From Patescibacteria group bacterium (GTDB taxonomy: Bacteria; Patescibacteriota; Patescibacteriia; JACRDY01), in contig JBAZLA010000005.1 of the NCBI GenBank assembly GCA_041650515.1, forward strand, positions 2,034-66,033: a stretch of DNA of 64,000 nt. The letters are read 5' to 3'. Below the pieces are notes generated by a model, which ran no database searches, was not told the DNA's origin, and saw only the letters and a list, made by a program, of their open reading frames with translations. The translations under genes and the position numbers were made by a program. The stretch's first letter is position 1. Every line of letters starts with the position of its first letter. This document shows, one piece after another, positions 4,856 through 31,074 of the stretch.

Positions 4856-6499
4856 ATGCCAAAGTGTAAACATTGTCATCAAGACTTTACCATTGATCAG
4901 CAAGAGCAGCAGTTTTATCAAGAGATAAAAGTACCGACGCCGACCTTTTGTCCGGACTGTCGCCAACAGCGGCGTTTGGCTTGGACTAACGAGCTAACAT
5001 TATATAACCGGAAGTGCGATCTGACTGGCAAAAATGTTATCTCGATGTTCAATCCTGATGTGCCCTTTCCGGTTTATGATTTTCATGAGTGGTGGGGCGA
5101 CAAGTGGGACGCTGGTAAATATGGCGCTGACTATAATCCAGAGCAATCTTTTTTTGACCAATTTATTGCGCTAAAAAATCGCGTGCCCCACCCATCGCTG
5201 GAGGCTAATATCACTCTACAGAATAGCGACTATACTAACTACTGCGGTTATGCGGTTAATTGTTTTTTGATCTTTGATTCGGCTTATACTGAGAATTGTT
5301 ATTATGGTTATACACTAATCCGCTGCAAAGAGGCGGTGGACTGCATGAAGAGCCATGGCTGTGAATACTGTTATTATTGCTCCGATTGTACCAGCTGTTT
5401 CAAACTCAAGTATAGCCAGGACTGCAATAAATGCTCCGAAAGTTATTTCCTTAAATATTGTTCCGGTTGTAACAGTTGTTTTGGTTGTATCAATCTGCGA
5501 AACAAAAGTTATTGTTGGTTAAATAAACAGCTGACGCCGGAAGAATATAATAAGCGATTGGCAATGGTTGATTTTGGCAGTCGGGAAGTAGTGGCTAAAG
5601 TCAAAAGCAAGTTTGATGAATTTTGTCTACGTTATCCGCACATCGCCATTCACGGCATCAAAAACGAGGATTGCAGTGGCGATTATTTGAATAGCACCTT
5701 TCAGACTGTTGCTTCTTATGATTGCCGCGATGTTCAAAATTGCCGCTACTCTTATTCTATCAGTTTGGGCGGCAAGGATGTCTATGATGTGTTTCAATTC
5801 GGCGGCGAGAGCCAGATCTTGTATGAAAGCGTGGTTTCCGGCTATAAAAATTATAACTGCAAATTTTGCTATCAAAGCTATACCAGCGGCCAAAATCTGG
5901 AATATTGCTTCAATTGCCTTGGTTCTAAAAATTGTTTTGGCTGTGTTGGTCTGCGCAAAAGGGAATTTTGTATCCTTAATAAACAATATAGCGAGGCTGA
6001 GTATAACCGGTTAAAAGAAGAGATAATTGTCAAAATGACGGCCACTGGCGAGTACGGCGAGTTTTTACCGGCTTCAATGTCACACCATGGCTATAACGAA
6101 ACCAGCGCCATGTTTTATTATCCTTTAACTAAAGAGCAGGCAACAGCTCAAGGATTTTGGTGGTATGACAAAAAAGTAACTGCGCCGGCGGTTAGTAAAA
6201 TAGTGCCGGATAATATTAAGGAAGTTCCTGACGCAATCACTAGCGATGTTTTTGTTTGTAGTTGTGGCAAGTCTTACCGGGTTACCACCCAGGAGTTAAA
6301 ATTTTATCGTGCTTTTAGTATCCCAGTGCCCGAAAAGTGCTATATTTGTCGTCATGTTGACCGGCTGTTCCAACGTAATCCGCAGCATCTTTGGGAACGT
6401 AGCTGTAGTAAGTGCGGTCGGGCGATGCAGACAACTTATGCTCCAGAGCGGCCGGAAATCGTCTATTGTAAAAAGTGTTTTCAAGATGATGTTTATTGA
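4856..6499 (+). CDS. large cysteine-rich protein, paralog 1 (twin terminal zinc-ribbon-like motifs, C-x2-C repeat core); function unknown
   Basis: 547 aa with >40 Cys. N-terminal CKHC..FY..VP.P.FCPDCRQQRR and C-terminal CSCGK..FYRAF.IPVPEKCYICRH motifs. Internal repeats NCFGC(I/V)(N/G)LR...C(W/I)LNKQ. Paralogous to 6897-8579 and 43278-44951. Confidence 0.7.
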   Translation: MPKCKHCHQDFTIDQQEQQFYQEIKVPTPTFCPDCRQQRRLAWTNELTLYNRKCDLTGKNVISMFNPDVPFPVYDFHEWWGDKWDAGKYGADYNPEQSFFDQFIALKNRVPHPSLEANITLQNSDYTNYCGYAVNCFLIFDSAYTENCYYGYTLIRCKEAVDCMKSHGCEYCYYCSDCTSCFKLKYSQDCNKCSESYFLKYCSGCNSCFGCINLRNKSYCWLNKQLTPEEYNKRLAMVDFGSREVVAKVKSKFDEFCLRYPHIAIHGIKNEDCSGDYLNSTFQTVASYDCRDVQNCRYSYSISLGGKDVYDVFQFGGESQILYESVVSGYKNYNCKFCYQSYTSGQNLEYCFNCLGSKNCFGCVGLRKREFCILNKQYSEAEYNRLKEEIIVKMTATGEYGEFLPASMSHHGYNETSAMFYYPLTKEQATAQGFWWYDKKVTAPAVSKIVPDNIKEVPDAITSDVFVCSCGKSYRVTTQELKFYRAFSIPVPEKCYICRHVDRLFQRNPQHLWERSCSKCGRAMQTTYAPERPEIVYCKKCFQDDVY

Positions 6500-6896: not shown

Positions 6897-8579
6897 ATGC
6901 CTCAATGTAAAAATTGCGGCCAGGAATTTATTATCACCGAACAAGATCGGTCTTTTTATAATCGGATTAATGTACCGGAACCGCAAATTTGTTGGGCTTG
7001 CCGGCGGCAACGGCGGCTAGCTTGGCGCAACGAGCGGGTGTTGTATCGGCGCAAGTGTGATTTGTGTCAAACAGAGATGGTTTCGCTGTATCCAGAAAAC
7101 AATCCCACGCCGATTTATTGTCATGAATGTTGGTGGAGTGATAAATGGGGTGGCGCTGATTATGCTCAAGATTTTGATTTTTCCCAACCGTTTTTTGAGC
7201 AGTTTAGCCAGTTAATCAAAAATGTGCCGCGCTTAACTATTATTAATAGCAAAGGTATCAATAGTGATTTTTGTAATTATTCTTACGCCAACAAGAATTG
7301 TTACCTAACTATTGGCTGTCATTATGAAGAAGATTGTTTTTATAATGATCACAGTACCAAGAACCATTCTTGTTTAGAATTAGCTCGTTCGATAAACTGT
7401 GAGTTGTCTTGCAATTGTGTTGATAGCGCAAAATGTTATCAATGTAGCTACTTAGATTTTTGTAAGGAATGTAATAACTGTCATTTTTGCTACAACTGTT
7501 CTGGTTGCCATGATTGTTTTTTGTCTAGCGACCAGTTAAACCAAAAATACGTTTTTAAAAATAAACAATTAACTCCTCATAATTATCAGCAAACAGTCGG
7601 TGATTATTTGAGTGGTAGTTACCAACAGTTTGAACGAGCTCAGCAAGAGTATTTAGAAATTGTTAAAAATACGATTAAAAAATATACCCACCAAGTTTAT
7701 TGTGTTGATTGTGTTGGCGACGATTTGGTTAATTGCAAAAATTTGCGTTATTGTTTTGATGCCACTGGTTGTGCTGATTGCGCTTATGGCGTGCAAATGG
7801 ATGAGCAATATGATTCACGGGATAACGATTATATGGGTTATGATCGGTCAGAAGTTTGTTTGGAGACGATTGGCTGTTCGGGGGTTTTTAATTGCTATTT
7901 TTGTGATTCTTGTTGGCATGATCATCATTTGCAATACTCTAATCTAGCTTTTGGCTCTAATGACTGTTTTGGTTGTGTGGGGATAAAAAACCAGAAATAT
8001 TGTATTTTAAATAAACAATATTCCGAAGATGAATACAAAAAATTATTATCCAAAGTTATTGATCATCTTAAGAAAACAGGGGAGTATGGCTGGTTTTTCC
8101 CCCTTGGTCTTTCACCCTATGGTTATAATGCCACGGTTAATATGGAACCGTATAACCAACCCCTAAACAAAGTGGAGGTCTCTGAGCTTGGTAGCTGGTG
8201 GCAAGAGAATACACCGGGTACTTTTGGCAAGGAAACCATCAACCAATTGCCTGATAATATTGGCGAAGTCGGTGATAATATTATTAAAGAGATTTTAGCC
8301 TGCGCTAATTGTCATAAAAATTTTAAAATCATTACCCAAGAATTGGAGCTTTATAAAAAATTAAATCTACCCTTGCCGCGACTTTGTCCGGATTGCCGTT
8401 ATTTTGCTAGGATCAAGCGGCGGCAGCCACGTCAGTTGTATTTGCGTCAGTGTATGTGTTCTAAAAATCATCAGTGGCATCAGGGGAAAAGTTGTCCTAA
8501 TAAATTTGAAACGGTCTACTCGCCAACTGGCGCGGAGCAACTTTATTGCGCTGAATGTTATCGACAGGAAACCTATTAA
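6897..8579 (+). CDS. large cysteine-rich protein, paralog 2; function unknown
   Basis: 560 aa with the same architecture as 4856-6499: MPQCKNCGQEF...CWACRRQRRLAWRNE at the N-terminus and CANCHKNFKIITQELELYKKLNLPLPRLCPDCRY at the C-terminus, plus the conserved TGEYGWFFP...SPYGYNAT block. Confidence 0.7.
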   Translation: MPQCKNCGQEFIITEQDRSFYNRINVPEPQICWACRRQRRLAWRNERVLYRRKCDLCQTEMVSLYPENNPTPIYCHECWWSDKWGGADYAQDFDFSQPFFEQFSQLIKNVPRLTIINSKGINSDFCNYSYANKNCYLTIGCHYEEDCFYNDHSTKNHSCLELARSINCELSCNCVDSAKCYQCSYLDFCKECNNCHFCYNCSGCHDCFLSSDQLNQKYVFKNKQLTPHNYQQTVGDYLSGSYQQFERAQQEYLEIVKNTIKKYTHQVYCVDCVGDDLVNCKNLRYCFDATGCADCAYGVQMDEQYDSRDNDYMGYDRSEVCLETIGCSGVFNCYFCDSCWHDHHLQYSNLAFGSNDCFGCVGIKNQKYCILNKQYSEDEYKKLLSKVIDHLKKTGEYGWFFPLGLSPYGYNATVNMEPYNQPLNKVEVSELGSWWQENTPGTFGKETINQLPDNIGEVGDNIIKEILACANCHKNFKIITQELELYKKLNLPLPRLCPDCRYFARIKRRQPRQLYLRQCMCSKNHQWHQGKSCPNKFETVYSPTGAEQLYCAECYRQETY

Positions 8580-9086: not shown

Positions 9087-9650
9087 ATGAGTCAACGCGT
9101 CTTTATCGCTTTAAACTTACCCGCGACGGTTAAAAATGAGCTGGGCGGTGTAATTTTACAGTTGCAAAAGCAGCTGTCTGGTCAGCCAATTAAGTGGGTC
9201 GACCCGCCGATTTTACACCTGACTTTGCACTTTTTAGGTGAAATAGACGATCAAACTTTAGCCGAAGTTGCCAAATTATTGACAGTAGAAATAGCTAAAT
9301 ACCCCGTGCTTAGTTTAGCGCTGGGTAAACTTGGTTGTTTTACTTTGCCTAATGGTTCACCTCGAGTAATCTGGGTAGAATTAAACGAGGTTGGTGGTGA
9401 AAGTTTGCGTCAGCTGCAGAGCGCTCTTAAAAAAGGGTTAGAAGATTTAGGATTAGAAACCGATCACCGGTCTTGGCAGACTCATATTACTCTGGGGCGG
9501 GTTAAAGATGAGACTAGATTTTCTTTACCGTCAGTAAAAATTGCACCACTTAATTTTTTGGTTGAAACGATTGATCTGATGAAAAGCGAACTGCAGCCAG
9601 GTGGTCCGATCTATACGTCGCTAGAGAAATTTAATTTAAAAAAAGAATGA
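9087..9650 (+). CDS. thpR: RNA 2',3'-cyclic phosphodiesterase (2H phosphoesterase, ThpR/LigT family)
   Basis: Two H-x-T/S-x motifs: HLTLHFLG and HITLGR. ~187 aa, typical ThpR size. Confidence 0.8.
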   Translation: MSQRVFIALNLPATVKNELGGVILQLQKQLSGQPIKWVDPPILHLTLHFLGEIDDQTLAEVAKLLTVEIAKYPVLSLALGKLGCFTLPNGSPRVIWVELNEVGGESLRQLQSALKKGLEDLGLETDHRSWQTHITLGRVKDETRFSLPSVKIAPLNFLVETIDLMKSELQPGGPIYTSLEKFNLKKE

Positions 9651-10849
9651 AGATTAGTATTTTAGGTGTTAACATCGATAGCTTAAGCTGGTCCGAGGTC
9701 TTAGCCCGGGTTCAAAGTTTTTTGGTTTCGCCAGGCCGATATACTATTGTAACGCCCAATCCGGAATTTATTGTTTTGGCGCAGCGTGACGAAAAATTCA
9801 AACATGTTTTAAATTCAGCCAGTCTGGCTGTGCCCGATGGTGTTGGTTTGGTGCTGGCGTCTTATTTACTGGGTAATAGAATCAATCGGCGCATCGCTGG
9901 TGTTGACCTGGTAGAAAAAATTTGTCAGTTGGCAGCATATAATAATAAGTCGATTTATTTCTTGGGCGGACAAGCTGGAGTCGGAGAAAAAGCGGCGACA
10001 GTATTGCAGCAAAAATTTCCTAAATTAAAGATTGCTGGTGTTAATTCAAATTTAATTATTCCAGCTCAGGGTCAGGCCGCTGATTATCAAAATCAAGCGG
10101 TTATTGATCGGGTCAATCAAGCGCAGCCTGATATTTTGCTGGTAGCTTTAGGCCAGGGCAAACAGGAAAAATGGATCTATCATAATTTAAGTAAGTTGCC
10201 GTCGGTTAAAATTGCCATGGGCGTGGGCGGCAGTTTAGATTTTATTTCTGGCATTGTCAAACGAGCGCCAGTACTTTGGCGACGATTGGGTCTTGAATGG
10301 CTTTGGCGGCTATTTACTCAGCCATGGCGTCTGGGCCGGATTTGGCGGGCCACAGTTTATTTTAGTTATTTAGTAATCAGATTTAGATTCCAGCAGCCGT
10401 GGCGGCGACGTAATGTTTGCGGTTTTATTTATAATAACGAGGGCAAAGTTTTTGTCGCCGAGCGAGTTGGTTCGCAAGATCATTGGCAATTACCCCAAGG
10501 GGGAGTAGACAAAGGTGAGACACCACAGCAAGCGATTATCAGAGAGTTAGCCGAGGAGCTAGGTACAGATAAATTTGAAATTAAACGGCGGTGTCATTTG
10601 ACGGTTTGTTATAATTTTTCTGATGCTAAACTTTTTAGCTCCGTTTATGGTCCTTATCCCGGTCAAAAACAGTCAATTTTTATCCTAAAATTCGTTGGTG
10701 AAAATGTAGATTTTCATTTAGATAAAGATGTTTTTACCGCTTGGCAGTGGGTGGCGCCGGAGCAACTATTAGATAAGTTACATTATTATCGTCGTCCAGT
10801 CGCTGATATTGCTTTAACTGAGCTTAGGGAGCTAAATAAATCCTTGTAA
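9647..10849 (+). CDS. fusion protein: WecB/TagA/CpsF-family glycosyltransferase (N-terminal ~240 aa) + NUDIX hydrolase (C-terminal ~150 aa)
   Basis: The TagA-like region (VPDGVGLV, EWLWRLFTQPWRLGRIWRATVYF) runs in-frame into a Nudix box, GGVDKGETPQQAIIRELAEELG. Confidence 0.75.
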   Translation: MKISILGVNIDSLSWSEVLARVQSFLVSPGRYTIVTPNPEFIVLAQRDEKFKHVLNSASLAVPDGVGLVLASYLLGNRINRRIAGVDLVEKICQLAAYNNKSIYFLGGQAGVGEKAATVLQQKFPKLKIAGVNSNLIIPAQGQAADYQNQAVIDRVNQAQPDILLVALGQGKQEKWIYHNLSKLPSVKIAMGVGGSLDFISGIVKRAPVLWRRLGLEWLWRLFTQPWRLGRIWRATVYFSYLVIRFRFQQPWRRRNVCGFIYNNEGKVFVAERVGSQDHWQLPQGGVDKGETPQQAIIRELAEELGTDKFEIKRRCHLTVCYNFSDAKLFSSVYGPYPGQKQSIFILKFVGENVDFHLDKDVFTAWQWVAPEQLLDKLHYYRRPVADIALTELRELNKSL

Positions 10850-16089: not shown

Positions 16090-17004
16090 TTATTTAAAGT
16101 ATACCCTATTTTCAAATCTTAGATCAATATAATTAATTTTTTTGTCTTTAACTTTTTGTTTGATTACTAAGTCTAAATTAGCCAATTGGCGGTCCAAGTC
16201 GTTTTGGAGGTCAAAATAGACATCAAACCCCCGGCTAGTGACCACTCGGACTTCAGTGCCTTGAGGTTCAGGTATTTGATAGGCCCTAGCTTCTAAATTA
16301 ACACTAGCTATTTTTTCTTTAAGTTGATAAATAAATTGGATAATCGCTGGGCTAACTATTGCTTGGCCAACTTTTACTTTGGTATTTGATAAATCATAAA
16401 CTATTGGTAGATTAGTATCTAGCACCGATAAATCAGTCATGGCTTCGCCAGTGGTGTCTGGTTGATTGGTGGCCGCGCCTTCAACCAAAGTGATATTAGC
16501 AACAATGACTTCTTTGACCGCTAAGCCATTAGAGTCTAAATAATAGTATTGATCCCCGCTAACCCAAGTAATTTGGCTCTCCTTTTCGGTAATAACAATT
16601 TTTAAGGTTTTTAGGGGTCTTTTTTTGATTTGGGCATCAGTAACCACATAGCGGTTTTTAATCTCATCTTGGGCCGTTTTTGAGTTAAAAAACCATAGAT
16701 TAGACTGGCTAAAGAGACCGAAGCGGCGCTGGCTAAGCTGGTCTTGAATAATCTGCTTAACTTGCTCAGCGCTAAGGCTTTTAATCCCCTCAGTTTGAAT
16801 GTTTTGAATCGTAAAAATGCCTGACCAACAGATTAGGTAAAGTAAGAAAAAGAAGCCCGCAATCCCTAAGGTTAGGTAGATTTTAAAACTGCGGCGTTGC
16901 CAGAAAAACTGTCGACGTTTAAACATCCCACCAGCGCCAGCGCCGCGGCGGAAAAGTGATCGACCCGAAGGTCTTTTGTAGCTTCTTTTTCTGGACCAGA
17001 ACAT
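16090..17004 (-). CDS. ftsQ: cell division protein FtsQ/DivIB (POTRA domain)
   Basis: N-terminal basic tail, single TM helix and POTRA-like region. Lies immediately downstream of ddl, the conserved dcw order. Confidence 0.7.
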   Translation of the reverse strand: MFWSRKRSYKRPSGRSLFRRGAGAGGMFKRRQFFWQRRSFKIYLTLGIAGFFFLLYLICWSGIFTIQNIQTEGIKSLSAEQVKQIIQDQLSQRRFGLFSQSNLWFFNSKTAQDEIKNRYVVTDAQIKKRPLKTLKIVITEKESQITWVSGDQYYYLDSNGLAVKEVIVANITLVEGAATNQPDTTGEAMTDLSVLDTNLPIVYDLSNTKVKVGQAIVSPAIIQFIYQLKEKIASVNLEARAYQIPEPQGTEVRVVTSRGFDVYFDLQNDLDRQLANLDLVIKQKVKDKKINYIDLRFENRVYFK

Positions 17005-17040: not shown

Positions 17041-19443
17041 TTAATATTTTTTATTTTGGATTAATTTTTCTAGAAGTTCTCTGGGGAAAATTGGTGGAGT
17101 CTCGGCTAGAGCTTGTTGATACAGGACTGTTGAGGGGGTTAAACCTGGCAAGGTGTTGACCTCAATAATTAATAAATCGCCGGTTTGAATATTAACAAAG
17201 GCATCGATTCGGGCATAGCCACGCAGGCCAATTTTTTTGGCTACTAGTTGGATCGATTTTTTTATTTTTGATAATACTGCGGGTTTAATAATATCTTTTG
17301 GCGGCGGGGTGATATTAATTCCAGTGCCGCCTTGGAATTTTTCTTCCACAGTTAGCACCTCCCCTTCTACCACCGTGATACTGGGGTTAAAAGCTTTAAG
17401 CGTGTTGTGATCCTCCACGACGCCAACGGTTATTTCGACCCAGCCGGTACGATGGCCGTGTTTTAATTGATTATTGTGCGCTCGCAGGATGTCAGTATAT
17501 ACAAACTGCTCTAGCAGTAATTCGGTGGGCGGGCTTGGCGGCATTTCGATAATACTTAGCTGGTTTTGAAATGTTTGTTTGGGTATACAGCCATCGCCGG
17601 TGGCGATAATTTTTAGATATTTTGCCAAATCGTTGGCGGAATAAAGATGAGCAATCCCCGTGCTGCAGCCATCGCCGCGCGGTTTGATGATTAATGTTTT
17701 GGCGGTCAGCTCTTTTTGGGCTTTGGTCCAGAGCTGTTCAATTTGTTTTTGGTTAAATTTTATGGCGGTTTTGGTTTTGATTATTTTTCCAGGAACAGAT
17801 TTAACCCCGGGTATTTTTAATTGGTTAATAAAATTGGCCGTTGCCCGTTTATCCATACACAGGCGCGAAGCTTGTTCCTCTGGGCCGTTAAACCGTACTC
17901 CCCTCTTAGTTAGTATTTTTTGGAGGTTGCCGTTTTCACCATCACCACCGTGCAGAGCAATAAAAATGAAATCAGACTCTTTAATCAGTTGATTAAAGTT
18001 TAGTTTCTCCGGCGCAAAAAAATCTTTCTTGTCTTTAATCTCCGTTAAACCAAGGTGTAGCCTGGCTCTTTCCTCGAACGAAGTTAGTCTTTTGGCGGCC
18101 GCTTGATAATGGCGGCAATTTTGGGTGATTTCTTCAACTGTGTGATTAAGACAGAGATGATAGGGCAAGCGCCAGATTAAGCCTTGGGGGTCTAATAAAT
18201 AAGGTTTGGGTTGATATTTAGTTGACCGGCGAAGCTTAAGCCAGACATTAGTGCCGCTCATCAGTGAAACTTGTCTTTCCGAGTCAGCGCCGCCCATCAG
18301 AACACTGACCGGCTGACGACGTGTGGTAATGGTTTTTTGAGCAACCGGAAACGGTATATTATAACGGTTACAAGTTCGTTTGATGATATATTGTAAAACG
18401 TCACTATGCGTTAGGCCGATCCGACTGGCTTGTTGAAAAAGAAAACTATTTTGCTCCATGCCGCTGATCATATTAAAGTCGCAGAACCAGATTTGGCCGT
18501 TGGGTAGTACCCAGCCATCGAACCGGCCAAAATCGCGCATTTTGAATAGTGAAAAAAGTTGTTCACCTTGAGCTTGGATTTTTTCAATTATTTTGTCGTT
18601 AAATCTTGGCGGGCAATGCCAGGTTACTTGGTGGGTGGGTAGATATTTTTTGCGAAAATCAAAAATCTGGTGTTCGGTGTAATCGGTTTCGATCTCGGTT
18701 GGCGGCAGGGCCACGGGTAACCCCAGGTGATTTTCTAAAATAATCATGGTAAATTCTGTGCCTTTGGCAAACGGTTCAATAACCACCCGGTTGGTAGTCC
18801 GCTGGGAAAAAAGTAGTTTAGCTTTAGCTAGAGCCTGGTTCGGAGTGGCCACGGAAAAAACACCAATACTCGAGCCACCAATAGCGGGTTTAACGATCGC
18901 TCGTTTAATTTGATAATTTTTGAAGAATTTTTTCACTATTTGACGGTGGTCGGAATGATTAATTCTGAGCACCGCTGACGGTAGGGTAAAAAATCCTTGT
19001 TGTTTAATAAACTCGTTAGCGATAAATTTATCAAAAGCCTGGCGGCAAGTCGGAGCGCTTGAGCCGACAAAAGGTAAATGGTGCTTTGCCAAAAAACTCT
19101 GGATCTGGCCGTCCTCGCCAAACTGGCCATGCATGGCTGGAAAAGTGATATCTATTTTTTTGAGTAAACTAACTAACCCTTTGGCGGTCAGTGGTTGAGC
19201 GGTTTGTTTGAGTTTAAAATCAAAATCAGATGGCGTGTTGCTATATAATTGAGCTTTGGAAATCTGGTAAGGGTTTTTTTGAGTATCAAAATAAATCGGT
19301 ATAATTTCTATCTGGGCCGATTGTAAGTGATCCATCAGCGACCGGGAAGAATTTAGCGAAATCCCCCGCTCGGCCGAGGGACCGCCGCAGAGAACAGCTA
19401 CTTTTAGTTTGGCTGTTGTTTTTTTTGAGTTAATATTTGACAT
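17041..19443 (-). CDS. ddl: tandem-duplicated D-alanine--D-alanine ligase (two complete ATP-grasp Ddl modules fused, 800 aa)
   Basis: Two Ddl N-terminal signatures (KVAVLCGGPSAERGISLNS and VSVLMGGADSERQVSLMSG). The C-terminal Ddl motif ARIDAFV...IIEVNTLPGLT is complete, and the first half has a diverged ATP-grasp C-terminal region. Confidence 0.8.
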   Translation of the reverse strand: MSNINSKKTTAKLKVAVLCGGPSAERGISLNSSRSLMDHLQSAQIEIIPIYFDTQKNPYQISKAQLYSNTPSDFDFKLKQTAQPLTAKGLVSLLKKIDITFPAMHGQFGEDGQIQSFLAKHHLPFVGSSAPTCRQAFDKFIANEFIKQQGFFTLPSAVLRINHSDHRQIVKKFFKNYQIKRAIVKPAIGGSSIGVFSVATPNQALAKAKLLFSQRTTNRVVIEPFAKGTEFTMIILENHLGLPVALPPTEIETDYTEHQIFDFRKKYLPTHQVTWHCPPRFNDKIIEKIQAQGEQLFSLFKMRDFGRFDGWVLPNGQIWFCDFNMISGMEQNSFLFQQASRIGLTHSDVLQYIIKRTCNRYNIPFPVAQKTITTRRQPVSVLMGGADSERQVSLMSGTNVWLKLRRSTKYQPKPYLLDPQGLIWRLPYHLCLNHTVEEITQNCRHYQAAAKRLTSFEERARLHLGLTEIKDKKDFFAPEKLNFNQLIKESDFIFIALHGGDGENGNLQKILTKRGVRFNGPEEQASRLCMDKRATANFINQLKIPGVKSVPGKIIKTKTAIKFNQKQIEQLWTKAQKELTAKTLIIKPRGDGCSTGIAHLYSANDLAKYLKIIATGDGCIPKQTFQNQLSIIEMPPSPPTELLLEQFVYTDILRAHNNQLKHGHRTGWVEITVGVVEDHNTLKAFNPSITVVEGEVLTVEEKFQGGTGINITPPPKDIIKPAVLSKIKKSIQLVAKKIGLRGYARIDAFVNIQTGDLLIIEVNTLPGLTPSTVLYQQALAETPPIFPRELLEKLIQNKKY

Positions 19444-19488
19444 AAATTAAATTTTATTATAGAGTATAGAATCTCAGGAGGTGTAATT

Positions 19489-19701
19489 TTGAGCAAAAGA
19501 GCGGAAAAATTGATAATGGCGATGCTTTACGCCATTATCGCGTTCGCGGCCTTTCAAAGTCGCGAATGGTTGTGGTGCGGTCTGTCGGCCACGGCGCTGA
19601 CTGGAATTATCCTCTGGTTCAACTACGGCCATCCGTGGCTGACCAGGCGGCTGGCTAATCGGCCAAAGAAACCGACGACGCCGCTCTCCCCCTTCCTCTA
19701 A
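19489..19701 (+). CDS. small membrane protein (70 aa), TTG start
   Basis: SD aggagg 7 nt upstream of TTG. Two hydrophobic helices. Locally GC-rich. Confidence 0.4.
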   Translation: MSKRAEKLIMAMLYAIIAFAAFQSREWLWCGLSATALTGIILWFNYGHPWLTRRLANRPKKPTTPLSPFL

Positions 19702-19809: not shown

Positions 19810-20034
19810 ATGCTGAGTCAATTTTTCTGGGTCGTGTTTTTCGCCGTGGTATATGTCTGTGGGGTTTTATACCCCCGACGAATATTATCGCTTAAGCGGT
19901 TCGCCGAGCCAGCGTCGGCGCGTCGACCCAGCTTTCGGGATGTGATTGGCGCGTTGATCAGCCTCGTCGGTGTAATGGGTCTTAGCTGGTCACTCAACCG
20001 GTTACTTGAACCATTTCACCAGTATCTTCACTAA
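19810..20034 (+). CDS. small membrane protein (74 aa)
   Basis: SD gggagg, hydrophobic N-terminus (FFWVVFFAVVYVCGVLY), followed by a terminator. Locally GC-rich. Confidence 0.4.
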   Translation: MLSQFFWVVFFAVVYVCGVLYPRRILSLKRFAEPASARRPSFRDVIGALISLVGVMGLSWSLNRLLEPFHQYLH

Positions 20035-20037
20035 TCT

Positions 20038-20066
20038 CCTCGTCTCTTGAGGAGTTTTTTTATAAA
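20038..20066 (+). terminator. rho-independent terminator
   Basis: Hairpin ctcctc-gtctctt-gaggag followed by a T9 run. Confidence 0.55.
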
Positions 20067-20100: not shown

Positions 20101-21231
20101 TTAAACCATTATTCGTGGTAGTACGGGGTTAATCCGGGTGACCACTTCGTAATTAATCGTGCCAATTTTTCCGGCCAAGTCTTCAGCGGTGATTCTAGCT
20201 TTACCTTGTTGGCCGATTAGCACCACTTCGTCGTTGATTTTAACGTTCTTGACTTTGGTGGCATCAATTATAATTAAATTCATACAAACGCGGCCGCGGA
20301 TTGGACATTTTTGTCCGTGGATTAAGACTTCGCCTTTGTTTGATAAATGGCGGTCATAACCATCCCAGTAGCCAACAGGCAGAACCGCAATTTTAGTTGT
20401 TTTAGTAGTTTTATAAGTGCAGCCATAGCCAATGCTTTGGCCTGGGTTTAGACATTTTACCGCAATTACGCGGGTTTTCCAAGTTAGGGCTGGCTGGAGA
20501 TTAAAACTAGGGTAGATTTTACTCGTCAGGCGTTTAGCTAGTTTAGATGGCCACAGACCATAAAGGCTAATACCCAGGCGAATTAGATTATATTGGCTTT
20601 CGGGGCGGACGAGCGCCGCGGCGCTGCAAGCAAAATGTTTAAGTGGGATATTAATGCCAAGTTTGTTCAGTTTAGCCACAAAATCATTAAAACGCTGGAT
20701 TTGCTGATCAGTAAATTTTTGGTTTTCCTCGGAGGCGGCAAAATGCGAAAACAGTCCTTCAAGTCTCAAATTTTTAAGTTTGGTAGTAATTTGGGTGATC
20801 AATTTTAAAGCTTCGGTTTCCCCTACCCCGAGCCTTGAAGTGCCGGTGTCTAACTTAAGGTGAACCCTGGCAATTCTATGTAATTTTTTCGCCGCTAAAT
20901 TAATTTGTTTTATTTGATCTGAATTATAAACCACCAAACTGATATTATTTTTGGCTGCCAGATCAATTTGATCAAAATAAAAAGATAGCACCAAAATGGG
21001 CTTGGTAATTTTAGCGCGACGCAGCTCCAGTGCTTCATCAAGGCTAACCACACAAAACCAGTCGGTTTGCTGCTGAATCACTTGGCTAACGCCGATTATC
21101 CCATGGCCGTAGGCGTTGCTTTTGACTGTCGCGCCGATTTGCGTCCCCGGCGACAGAATCCGACGGAATTGGTTTAGATTATGTTTTAGGTTTTGGGTAT
21201 TAATTTCGACCCAGGAATTGATCGTAAGCAT
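20101..21231 (-). CDS. alr: alanine racemase
   Basis: PLP-binding motif ATVKSNAYGHG and the Alr C-terminal beta domain. The ORF is open to 21264, but the first 11 codons (MRRTRDDNKTN) derive from a repeat element, so the start was placed at the MLTINSW Met. Confidence 0.85.
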   Translation of the reverse strand: MLTINSWVEINTQNLKHNLNQFRRILSPGTQIGATVKSNAYGHGIIGVSQVIQQQTDWFCVVSLDEALELRRAKITKPILVLSFYFDQIDLAAKNNISLVVYNSDQIKQINLAAKKLHRIARVHLKLDTGTSRLGVGETEALKLITQITTKLKNLRLEGLFSHFAASEENQKFTDQQIQRFNDFVAKLNKLGINIPLKHFACSAAALVRPESQYNLIRLGISLYGLWPSKLAKRLTSKIYPSFNLQPALTWKTRVIAVKCLNPGQSIGYGCTYKTTKTTKIAVLPVGYWDGYDRHLSNKGEVLIHGQKCPIRGRVCMNLIIIDATKVKNVKINDEVVLIGQQGKARITAEDLAGKIGTINYEVVTRINPVLPRIMV

Positions 21232-21242
21232 GTTTGTTTTAT

Positions 21243-21350
21243 TGTCATCCCTCGTCCGCCGCAAGCGGACGAAGGATTGGCCTGTTTCTATTAATGATCC
21301 GATCCTTTGCGGAGTTTACCCTGAGCGCAGCGAAGGGCTCGGGATGACAG
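21243..21350. repeat. palindromic repeat unit (tgtcatccctcgtccgccgcaagcggacgaaggat ... ctcgggatgacag)
   Basis: Inverted termini tgtcatcc / ggatgaca, with the internal conserved core gcggagtttaccctgagcgcagcgaagg shared with copies at 22843 and 28205. Confidence 0.55.
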
Positions 21351-28870: not shown

Positions 28871-29524
28871 AATATGGTGGGTTACTTCTTTCTCCAATTG
28901 TTTAATAAAATTGGTCATTAATTTGGCCAGCGGTCGGGCAATTTTTTTAGCCGTTGGTGTAGCTACATTATCCAGACAGCTAGCTTGAAAATTTAATTCA
29001 TCGACTAAGTATTGACCAACACCTTGACCCTTAGCAAAACGTTTGTTAAAACCCAGGCTATCTAACTTCCAAGTTGGGCCTTTGATATTGTGGGGATCGT
29101 ATTTTAGCCAAGTTGTGCAAGTGTCACAGGCGCGAATAATCCCAATTGTGCCTAATAAATCTAGAATATCAGCATCTTTTAAAATCGCAGTCAGTCCTTG
29201 GCCTTTACCGCCGGTATTGTGCTCGGCAATTGCTTGTTCAACTTTTTTGGTTTTATCCTCGGATAATATTTTTAATCTTCTTAGATATTGACCAGCAATT
29301 TTGGCGCCTGCCCGCCCGTGTTCTCGCTGATTAGTAACGAACGGTCGGCCGATATCGTGCATCAAAGCGGCGATTTCCACCATTTTTAGATCTGGATATT
29401 TTTCTTTTTTGGCAATTAAGACGGCCCATTGGCGCACGCGATCAACATGATCATAGTCGTGAGTCGTTTGGCTTTTGCTTATTTTTTGAACGTACTGCTC
29501 AATTTTTTTGATTTGATTTTTCAT
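28868..29524 (-). CDS. HD-domain phosphohydrolase
   Basis: HDYDHVDRV ... ALMHDIGR motifs. 218 aa. Confidence 0.75.
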   Translation of the reverse strand: MKNQIKKIEQYVQKISKSQTTHDYDHVDRVRQWAVLIAKKEKYPDLKMVEIAALMHDIGRPFVTNQREHGRAGAKIAGQYLRRLKILSEDKTKKVEQAIAEHNTGGKGQGLTAILKDADILDLLGTIGIIRACDTCTTWLKYDPHNIKGPTWKLDSLGFNKRFAKGQGVGQYLVDELNFQASCLDNVATPTAKKIARPLAKLMTNFIKQLEKEVTHHI

Positions 29525-31074
29525 TTTGTCGCTTCAGCTAAACGCTTTGCCACCAAGTCATAATCAAGTGAAGCCAAAAGCCAGCCGGCTTGGGGGCCAG
29601 AATCTTTACCTAAGAAAATCTGGTAAATGGCACTAAAAAATTCTTTGGGGTCAGCGGCTTGATTGGTTTTAATTTGGTGCAAAGCGCTATGTAAATTTTC
29701 GCCAGTCCATTTTTTTTGGGTTTGAAAAGTTTTTAATAGTTCGGCTAATAATTCCTTTTGTTTGATCGCTAAATTTAGAGTTGGCAGTTTTTCCAAGACG
29801 TTAAATTTATAATTATCCGGGGCATAAGTACTAAGCCATTTTTTGGCATAGTCAGCGCGGGTTTGGATTTCAGCCTTTTCTGAAGCGGTTAATTTACTCC
29901 CCTTTTCGGTTTGGGCATAATCATAGATATCGGCCCGAGGCATTTGTAATAAATAAGCGATTTTGGAAAAACGCAAACGATAGACCGGCGGCGGTTGGGT
30001 GGTTAATTTGGCATATTCATAGGCCTGACCAAAATCCGATTCGGGGTCAGCAAAATAAGCGTCAATACAGCGGTCTAATTCGTCATAGAGCCGGGGTACG
30101 GCTTCGCCTTCCAGGGTAAATTCGATGCGCGTTTTAGCTTTAGTCCGCATCATTAGAAAGCGTACTAGTTCGGCCGGTAATAGTTCGACAATGTCGCTAG
30201 CGGAAATTCCCACACCTTTGGATGAACTCATTTTTTTGCCGCCATCAATCATTAGCCATTCGTAAATATGGCCAAAAGCGGGCTGAATTTTAAAAACTTT
30301 TTGAGCAATTTCTCGTGCCACATAAAAACTGCCGCCCTTAGTATAGTGGTCAAGGCCAGCTAGCTCTACTTTAGTTCTGCGAAAAAGCCAACGGGCAACA
30401 ATAGCTAGCTTGTAAGGTAGTTTGGCATTGCCATCAAAAGGTGAAATTTGGCCCTGATAGCCACAGCCAGCGGCCCACTCCACCATTTTTGGTTCGCAAG
30501 TAAAAGTAACAAGTTTACCGTCCCAAGCCGTGACTTTGGTGGTTAGTTTGCCGCACTTAGGACAGACAACGTTCAAAGCGTGCCAATTAGCGTCTTTGAC
30601 TGAGCCCGAGATTTCTTTATAAATTTTTCTGATTTCGGCGGCATTATCTAAAGTTATTTTGATCGCGTCATTGTATTCGCCTTTTTTATAGCTTTCGGAA
30701 TCCCAGACAATTTTGGGTTGGGCACCTAGCTGGTTAAAAACTCTCAAAAAGTCTTGAGCATAATAATCAGCGTAACTTTTATAGCCTGGCTCGGGCGAGG
30801 GAATATTACAAAGTGGCAGACCCATATATTGGCGATAGACTTTTTCGTCTAAGTAAGCCGGTAGGCCGTCCATCGGATCAAAATCGTCAAAACCATAAAG
30901 ATATTCGGTTTTGGCTTTAGCCTTTTTTAAACCGAGGTAAATGGCATCATGAATCAAAACCCCGCGGAGCGAGCCAACATGGACTTTACCTGATGGAGTT
31001 TTATAATCGGTGACCAAATAGCTTTTGGCTTCTTGCTCGAGGATTTTTTGTACTTCTTCGTTAACCCAAAACAT
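29521..31074 (-). CDS. lysS: lysine--tRNA ligase, class I (archaeal-type LysK)
   Basis: Class I signature PSGKVHVGSLRG (HIGH-like) and KMSSSKG (KMSKS). ~517 aa, typical of class I LysRS. No class II motifs. Confidence 0.8.
   Translation of the reverse strand: MFWVNEEVQKILEQEAKSYLVTDYKTPSGKVHVGSLRGVLIHDAIYLGLKKAKAKTEYLYGFDDFDPMDGLPAYLDEKVYRQYMGLPLCNIPSPEPGYKSYADYYAQDFLRVFNQLGAQPKIVWDSESYKKGEYNDAIKITLDNAAEIRKIYKEISGSVKDANWHALNVVCPKCGKLTTKVTAWDGKLVTFTCEPKMVEWAAGCGYQGQISPFDGNAKLPYKLAIVARWLFRRTKVELAGLDHYTKGGSFYVAREIAQKVFKIQPAFGHIYEWLMIDGGKKMSSSKGVGISASDIVELLPAELVRFLMMRTKAKTRIEFTLEGEAVPRLYDELDRCIDAYFADPESDFGQAYEYAKLTTQPPPVYRLRFSKIAYLLQMPRADIYDYAQTEKGSKLTASEKAEIQTRADYAKKWLSTYAPDNYKFNVLEKLPTLNLAIKQKELLAELLKTFQTQKKWTGENLHSALHQIKTNQAADPKEFFSAIYQIFLGKDSGPQAGWLLASLDYDLVAKRLAEATK

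Follow-up and report, generated by a model that had tools for sequence, protein, structure and literature searches.

A putative plant-type tandem D-Ala-D-Ala ligase encoded by a single open reading frame in a Patescibacteria contig

We use sequence comparison, structure prediction and a survey of related loci to study one gene in a 64,000-nucleotide stretch of DNA from a Patescibacteria group bacterium (positions 2,034 to 66,033 of contig JBAZLA010000005.1, assembly GCA_041650515.1; this whole stretch is called the window below). [quoted passage not shown] Its parts are given here with the evidence for each in brackets; AF2 stands for AlphaFold2, pLDDT for its predicted local distance difference test score, and DdlB is the E. 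coli enzyme that serves as reference.

17041..19443, minus strand: entire tandem ddl ORF, encoding 800 aa, with its stop codon (ORF, Pfam, NCBIfam, homologues, collinearity with the plant DDL P0276)
18364..19407, minus strand: N-type module, residues 13-360, a canonical-looking Ddl (Pfam, DdlA structures, residue conservation, AF2)
18607..18663, minus strand: omega-loop lid of the N module, residues 261-279, FDFRKKYLPTHQVTWHCPP, with K266 and Y267 (AF2 pLDDT below 50 at 265-273)
18316..18363, minus strand: variable 16-residue linker, residues 361-376 (lowest conservation in the alignment, column majority about 0.37; no regular secondary structure in AF2)
17050..18315, minus strand: C-type module (residues 377-798), complete and of the Ddl type (Pfam, residue signature, HMMER clusters)
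18019..18222, minus strand: insertions in the N-terminal domain of the C module relative to DdlB, residues 408-421 and 428-475 (alignment gaps; boundaries approximate)
17437..17622, minus strand: insertions in the central ATP-grasp domain of the C module relative to DdlB, residues 608-629 and 652-669 (alignment gaps; boundaries approximate)
17299..17355, minus strand: omega-loop lid of the C module, residues 697-715, LTVEEKFQGGTGINITPPP, with K702 and F703 (AF2 pLDDT below 50 at 695-707)

A first-pass annotation of this DNA had proposed two complete Ddl/ATP-grasp modules in one polypeptide, and separate Pfam scans, the AF2 model and fold matches in the PDB all bear this out. Scanned whole, the protein contains two stretches each for Dala_Dala_lig_N and Dala_Dala_lig_C. 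When the halves are scanned separately, the N half (residues 1-371) scores 87.3 bits on PF01820 and 86.0 bits on PF07478 and the C half (residues 372-800) 68.4 and 59.0 bits; since all of these lie far over the gathering cutoffs (34.6 for PF01820 and 24 for PF07478), each half is a complete Ddl-type module. Both of the N-terminal Ddl signatures that had been quoted, of the form GG-x-S-x-ER, are present, VAVLCGGPSAERGISLNS at residues 15-32 in the N module and VSVLMGGADSERQVSLMSG at residues 379-397 in the C module, and the two halves align with each other at 22% identity (E 5e-15). An origin of the N half in a different ATP-grasp family, which the annotation had named as a way for its proposal to fail, is rejected: other ATP-grasp Pfam families score at or below cutoff and the matches to the Ddl N and C domains are strong instead.

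The two modules resemble known Ddl enzymes to different degrees. On TIGR01205, the N module scores 189.5 bits and the C module 130.6 bits, with a summed score of 314.6 for the whole protein (cutoff 245.65); no equivalog-level NCBIfam Ddl model is passed by the tandem protein. Its best matches in the PDB (DdlA structures, E 8e-25) and in NCBIfam lie on residues 10-361, the N module, and the C half aligns to Ddl structures piecewise only, with insertions between the pieces. The C-terminal module is the more diverged one and the N module the better Ddl match, which turns around the earlier suggestion that the first module had diverged further.

The AF2 model of the 800 residues has a pLDDT of 86.6 and a predicted template modelling score (pTM) of 0.86, and a pTM of this size across 800 residues implies a defined orientation and packing between the modules. 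Internal disorder is confined to the two omega loops, where low pLDDT is as expected of mobile lids, and the C module has extra helices at 436-444 and 446-464. The top 50 PDB fold matches are all Ddl, VanA, VanG or LmDdl2 chains (TM-score 0.75-0.89, target-normalised), each spanning one module. Model and fold matches together place the three-domain Ddl fold in the tandem protein.

To compare the two active sites, we map that of DdlB (reference sequence 100% identical to 1IOV/2DLN) onto both modules and follow each residue through 120 close homologues and 117 diverse ones, about 240 together. DdlB residues E15, H63, E68, K97, K144, E187, K215, R255, D257 and N272 are kept in both modules, essentially without exception. 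The ATP lysines, Mg2+ ligands and catalytic Arg (DdlB K97, K144, K215, R255, D257, E270 and N272) are present in both, the sole change being a conservative one, E270 to Asp in the N module. In the numbering of the tandem protein, the N-module residues are E25, K139, K185, S191, K266, Y267, R307, D309, D322, N324, S333 and F334, and E389, K532, K587, K702, R745, D747, E761 and N763 are intact in the C module. The modules differ at the following positions.

DdlB S150: S191 in the N module, C593 in the C module
DdlB Y216: Y267 in the N module, F703 in the C module
DdlB E270: D322 in the N module, E761 in the C module
DdlB S281: S333 in the N module, T772 in the C module
DdlB L282: F334 in the N module, V773 in the C module

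The domain-wise check of ATP- and D-Ala-binding residues that the annotation had called for thus finds ATP, Mg2+ and catalytic residues in both halves, and the Glu15-Ser150-Tyr216 triad of DdlB only in the N module (E25, S191, Y267). The C-module residues C593, F703, T772 and V773 are themselves fixed in the roughly 240 homologues, from bacteria of the Candidate Phyla Radiation (CPR) to green algae and one angiosperm, with the exception of a Val at the Phe703 position in Tetraselmis. The EEKFQGGTG lid motif of the C module is nearly invariant, and the region of the first of its four insertions relative to DdlB carries an invariant patch (W424, P427-Y428 and N433-H434-T435-V436-E437). Overall constraint is equal, with a mean pairwise identity of 0.381 for the N module and 0.377 for the C module in the diverse set. 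As judged from these alignments, the N and C modules are anciently non-equivalent and neither is degenerate; the suggestion that one of them might be a degenerate or regulatory duplicate is contradicted by the residue conservation and by the equal constraint. A C-type module without an N-type one, a rare case, is also on record: P0150 (L081:368-1630) is a 420-aa protein with a Met start that keeps DGCSAG and EEKFQGGTG, and its upstream neighbour, on a single 1.6-kb contig, is a gene fragment resembling phosphatidylserine decarboxylase (psd-like) and not an N-type module. The C-type module can therefore exist without the N module.

The fusion recurs widely, as the survey of related genomes suggested by the annotation makes clear. 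The identical protein is recorded in NCBI, JGI and ENA (P0001) from a Patescibacteria metagenome-assembled genome (MAG), on a 127.9-kb contig, and the next 119 full-length matches are 764-837 aa long and 60-71% identical, at 95-100% query coverage. With the C half alone as query, HMMER returns 281 clusters (50% identity level) at E<=1e-30, nearly all of them tandem proteins, about 780-830 aa long, in which the C module spans about 365-790. Among GTDB species genomes, 492 loci encode the tandem Ddl as one ORF; the assemblies with this ORF include the chromosome-level CP066682.1, OZ246396.1 and OZ252287.1 and a 2.0-Mb contig (CAVYTG010000001.1). The gene is spread, at 54-69% identity, over many Patescibacteria classes and further over Dependentiae, several lineages of Gammaproteobacteria and others. 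The tandem genes of L009, L014, L018, L024, L028, L032, L060, L074 and L080, whose titles name Dependentiae (TM6), Coxiellaceae, Thiotrichales, Francisellaceae and other Gammaproteobacteria (one of them on a 2.0-Mb contig), are 57-64% identical to the window copy. Identity this high between phyla points to horizontal transfer or to a constraint of unusual strength. Proteobacterial copies form partly coherent subgroups. Some MAG labels seem unreliable: the 'Rickettsiales' locus L059 is nearest to Paceibacteria copies.

This recurrence also disposes of the concern, raised by the annotation for about 18.3 kb, that a frameshift or a sequencing or assembly error had joined two adjacent ddl genes. 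We found nothing in favour of an artefact and give it next to no weight: beyond the identical record and the 119 homologues, the single ORF recurs in hundreds of independent assemblies, chromosome-level ones included, and the tandem form is found in plant and algal nuclear genes.

The plant connection can be followed in detail. The window protein is collinear with an angiosperm DDL (Forsythia ovata P0276, a protein that NCBI and UniRef give this name); the alignment scores 617 bits and shows 40% identity in 873 columns. Plant and green-algal DDLs (Arabidopsis At3g08840, Physcomitrium PpDDL, P0276, Myrmecia bisecta P0210 and Tetraselmis P0226) have, like the window protein, an N-type followed by a C-type module, and share with it the signatures RKKYLPT, D.N and SF in the N module and DGCSTG, EEKFQGGTG and TPSTV in the C module. 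The signatures of P0210 are those of the window protein; P0276 has the same three C-module motifs (DGCSTG, EEKFQGGTG, TPSTV) together with RRKYLPT and D.N..SGMEQ.SF; and those of P0226 match save for the Val at the Phe703 position, a Q at that of DdlB E180 in the N module and an A at that of G276 in the C module. A search that started from P0226 was dominated by low-complexity words and yielded a single plant protein. What sets the eukaryotic proteins apart is added sequence. Plant DDLs are extended at the N terminus by about 70-100 aa, presumably a targeting sequence, and algal DDLs carry SAP domains and long inserts, none of which the window protein has; in P0210 and P0226 the SAP domain is N-terminal and the inserts are very long, giving proteins of 1580-1876 aa. 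The settings differ as well: the window gene is bacterial and lies near alr and ftsQ, and fusions in its family tie it to MurF, whereas plants often lack MurF.

Plant DDL has been described as a fusion of two DDL enzymes that is present throughout the plant lineage (PMC9954125), moss peptidoglycan precursors terminate in D-Ala-D-Ala (PMC9434261), and At3g08840 is listed as horizontally acquired with "Chlamydiae/CFB bacteria" as donor (PMC3493653). Our literature search found no paper on the tandem form in CPR or other bacteria, nor on its two active sites. From the collinearity and the shared signatures, we take the window gene to be the bacterial form of the plant-type tandem DDL, orthologous to plant DDL.

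Around the tandem gene, the window contains the following features.

16037-16020, minus strand: terminator-like hairpin after the FtsQ-like gene (terminator scan overall not clearly above shuffled controls)
16090..17004, minus strand: FtsQ-like gene, 36 nt downstream of tandem ddl on the same strand (POTRA_1 23.5 bits, cutoff 23; FtsQ_DivIB_C 21.2 bits, cutoff 21; both barely above)
19489-19701 and 19810-20034, plus strand: two small ORFs between alr and tandem ddl, 70 and 74 aa, both hydrophobic
20101..21264, minus strand: alanine racemase gene (alr), upstream of tandem ddl on the same strand, whose product supplies D-Ala (Ala_racemase_N 218 bits, Ala_racemase_C 159.5 bits)

Because the two small genes on the opposite strand intervene, alr and tandem ddl do not form one operon in the window. 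Each of the small ORFs has a Shine-Dalgarno-like AGGAGG or GGGAGG upstream, and a clean hairpin with a T-run lies at 20036-20054, behind the second. The 650-nt gap between alr and ddl has a local GC content of about 0.50, against about 0.41 in its flanks, and gave no Rfam match when searched for structured RNA. Directly ahead of tandem ddl (19444-19481, minus strand) lies a TATAAT hexamer, ending 12 nt ahead of the ATG, and a Shine-Dalgarno sequence is absent; a promoter scan, itself not clearly above shuffled controls, found no full sigma-70 match on the ddl strand upstream of the ATG. Homologues align from residue 8-13 onward only. A very short leader, or a start codon other than the annotated one, is possible.

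The first-pass annotation had read the position of the gene upstream of ftsQ as the conserved order of the division and cell wall (dcw) cluster. The FtsQ-like neighbour is indeed there; the order seems to be local, since it was not found in relatives. Within the 64-kb window we see no mur gene, no ftsA or ftsZ nearby and no second Ddl-like ORF, and adjacency to ftsQ was not detected in a context survey of 80 related loci, which is weak evidence given that tblastn with a divergent FtsQ is insensitive. The sole recurrent pathway-related neighbour in this survey is alr, adjacent in 22 of the 80 loci and mostly starting a few bases past the tandem stop codon. Other neighbours vary (Met-aminopeptidase, S41 peptidase, PMT-like glycosyltransferase, SerA-like dehydrogenase). 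The last of these, a D-isomer-specific 2-hydroxyacid dehydrogenase with an ACT domain, lies directly downstream on the same strand at L064:10345-11595, where it overlaps the tandem stop, and at L079:10382-11593, where it starts 18 nt past it.

Fusions in metagenomic relatives point the same way as the alr linkage. P0167 is a Ddl-Ddl-MurF fusion of 1262 aa (TIGR01143 319.7 bits, cutoff 288.6), and P0197 a Ddl-Ddl-MurF-Alr fusion of 1638 aa that passes both the murF and the alr cutoffs and so joins three consecutive pathway activities. Because of the alr linkage and these fusions with MurF and Alr, the tandem enzyme is placed in the Alr to Ddl to MurF (D-Ala) branch of peptidoglycan precursor synthesis. 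A further metagenomic protein, P0163 (987 aa), is a GNAT-Ddl-Ddl fusion.

Elsewhere in the window, two neighbouring paralogues of about 550 aa (4856-6499 and 6897-8579, both on the plus strand) have an N-terminal treble-clef zinc finger (zf_Tbcl) and otherwise no family match. A 400-aa ORF at 9647-10849 (plus strand) joins a WecG/TagA/CpsF-family glycosyltransferase to a NUDIX hydrolase domain, and the lysyl-tRNA synthetase at 29521-31074 (minus strand) matches TIGR00467 (lysS_arch) with 328.8 bits against a cutoff of 147.55.

Three groups of known enzymes give these observations a frame. Canonical Ddl enzymes (E. coli DdlB 2DLN/1IOV; DdlA-type 3Q1K, 3I12 and 3TQT) have the same three-domain ATP-grasp fold and the same ATP, Mg2+ and catalytic residues as both modules; they are, however, about 300-370 aa long with one site per chain and form a non-covalent dimer, whereas in the window protein two non-equivalent sites are linked covalently. 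Relative to them the N module keeps the triad, with E270 replaced by Asp and L282 by Phe, and the C module differs by its four insertions and by C, F, T and V at positions 150, 216, 281 and 282. Van-type ligases (VanA 1E4E, VanG 4FU0, LmDdl2 1EHI) match the tandem modules in fold, but Van models score far under cutoff; even for the best of them, VanG, the whole protein reaches 216 bits and the C module 86.5 bits against a cutoff of 495. The DdlB Y216F mutant (1IOW) has Phe at the Tyr216 position, as does the C module. This mutation is said to gain DdlB the synthesis of D-Ala-D-lactate, and Phe at this position is presumably also found in natural D-Ala-D-Lac and D-Ala-D-Ser ligases, LmDdl2 and VanC-type enzymes included; neither Cys at position 150 nor a QGGTG lid motif is a known feature of Van ligases. 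Finally, other fused precursor enzymes (chlamydial MurC-Ddl NF011171, MurF-Alr NF008897, MurE-MurF NF008896) carry consecutive steps of the D-Ala branch in one chain, as the Ddl-Ddl-MurF(-Alr) relatives do, but these join different enzymes whereas the window protein joins two paralogous copies of one type. The window protein reaches 134 bits on the MurC-Ddl model, whose cutoff is 1015.

Putting this together, we consider it probable that the gene encodes a plant-type tandem D-Ala-D-Ala ligase with a housekeeping role and two catalytically competent modules. In such a scheme, the neighbouring alanine racemase would supply D-Ala to the tandem enzyme, which would follow the usual ATP-grasp chemistry (an acyl-phosphate formed on D-Ala1, then attack by the amine of D-Ala2) to yield D-Ala-D-Ala, and the dipeptide would be handed on to MurF, for use in the pentapeptide of peptidoglycan. 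The canonical D-Ala-D-Ala site would be that of the N-type module. The C-type module would be competent too, with a second-substrate pocket that lacks the Ser and Tyr hydroxyls; because these are replaced by Cys593 and Phe703, the C-type site probably differs in kinetics or in tolerance for the second substrate. Turnover at both sites, and D-Ala-D-Ala as the product, we infer. ATP-dependent D-Ala-D-Ala synthesis is backed indirectly by the alr linkage, by the MurF and Alr fusions and by the moss knockout literature. The modelled arrangement of the modules would amount to an intramolecular Ddl dimer, or pseudo-dimer.

Several points weigh against this assignment. The pTM is the sole basis for the geometry of the pseudo-dimer. 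Neither module by itself reaches any curated NCBIfam Ddl cutoff, which is why NCBI names the protein "hypothetical protein". In place of an intact Glu-Ser-Tyr triad, the C module has E389, C593 and F703. Gammaproteobacterial tandem copies lie outside any dcw cluster, so that the gene may be an accessory enzyme there. Many plants and algae keep DDL without MurF, a retention that hints at a role beyond feeding MurF. Moreover, our search found no biochemistry for any bacterial tandem member, nor any that separates the two modules.

Some of these points lead to a different reading, namely that the enzyme is bifunctional and makes two products, the N module forming D-Ala-D-Ala and the C module joining D-Ala, or some other amino acid, to a different second substrate, for example D-lactate, D-serine or a further D-amino or hydroxy acid. 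The second ligase of altered specificity that the annotation had offered as one option would, on this reading, be the C module. The fixation of C593, F703, T772 and V773 is the pattern expected of a conserved distinct specificity and not of drift; invariant insertions are peculiar to the C module, which also exists as a standalone protein in P0150; Phe703 mirrors 1IOW; and the retention of DDL in plants and algae that lack MurF would fit as well. The genomic record argues the other way. No VanH-, VanX- or VanT-like partner lies beside the tandem gene in the window, no gene for the supply of D-lactate or D-serine was found next to it, and in the 80 loci the only 2-hydroxyacid dehydrogenase is the SerA-like, ACT-containing one, in 2 of 80; fusion partners in the pathway are MurF and Alr only. 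Every Van-type model scores far below cutoff, the contacts for the first-substrate amine (E389) and the second-substrate carboxylate (T772, hydroxyl kept) are compatible with D-Ala-D-Ala, and moss precursors end in that dipeptide (PMC9434261). On balance we regard two products as a minority possibility, though a serious one. Its most far-reaching version, that the C-type module is an ancient and distinct ATP-grasp ligase subtype (Cys/Phe, QGGTG lid, own insertions) whose physiological second substrate is not D-alanine, and that tandem DDLs from CPR to plants are bifunctional and make D-Ala-D-Ala and D-Ala-X, is a doubtful proposal; if true, it would account both for the strong conservation of the two-site design and for DDL kept without MurF.

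It is also conceivable that a single module turns over, that the other binds nucleotide or substrate in a structural or regulatory capacity and that the tandem simply hard-wires a Ddl dimer. Ddl enzymes work as dimers, several chains are listed per PDB entry, the high pTM has the modules in fixed packing, and each module alone falls under the NCBIfam Ddl cutoffs. Pseudoenzymes, however, normally lose catalytic residues, and here both modules keep theirs, essentially without change even in homologues of about 31% identity: the catalytic Arg, all three Mg2+ ligands, the two ATP lysines and the omega-loop Lys. Constraint on the two modules is equal as well. This invariance makes a purely structural or regulatory role unlikely for either module, and we judge the single-site alternative very improbable.

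The architecture itself is already known from plants, and bacterial homologues were noticed earlier as putative donors; the window gene is a further bacterial member of a barely characterised type. What appears under-described is the spread of the tandem gene, the fixed and ancient asymmetry of its active sites and its inconsistent annotation. The two-module DDL is thus not confined to plants. As a bacterial type it is widespread and under strong conservation, occurring in many Patescibacteria lineages as well as in Dependentiae and several Gammaproteobacteria, and these small bacterial genes are convenient material for the biochemistry that the plant field needs on the activity of the two halves and on the product of the C-type site. 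The fixed Cys/Phe pocket in the second site offers a testable hypothesis of altered specificity, which may have a bearing on susceptibility to D-cycloserine or vancomycin and on how plastid peptidoglycan genes arose.

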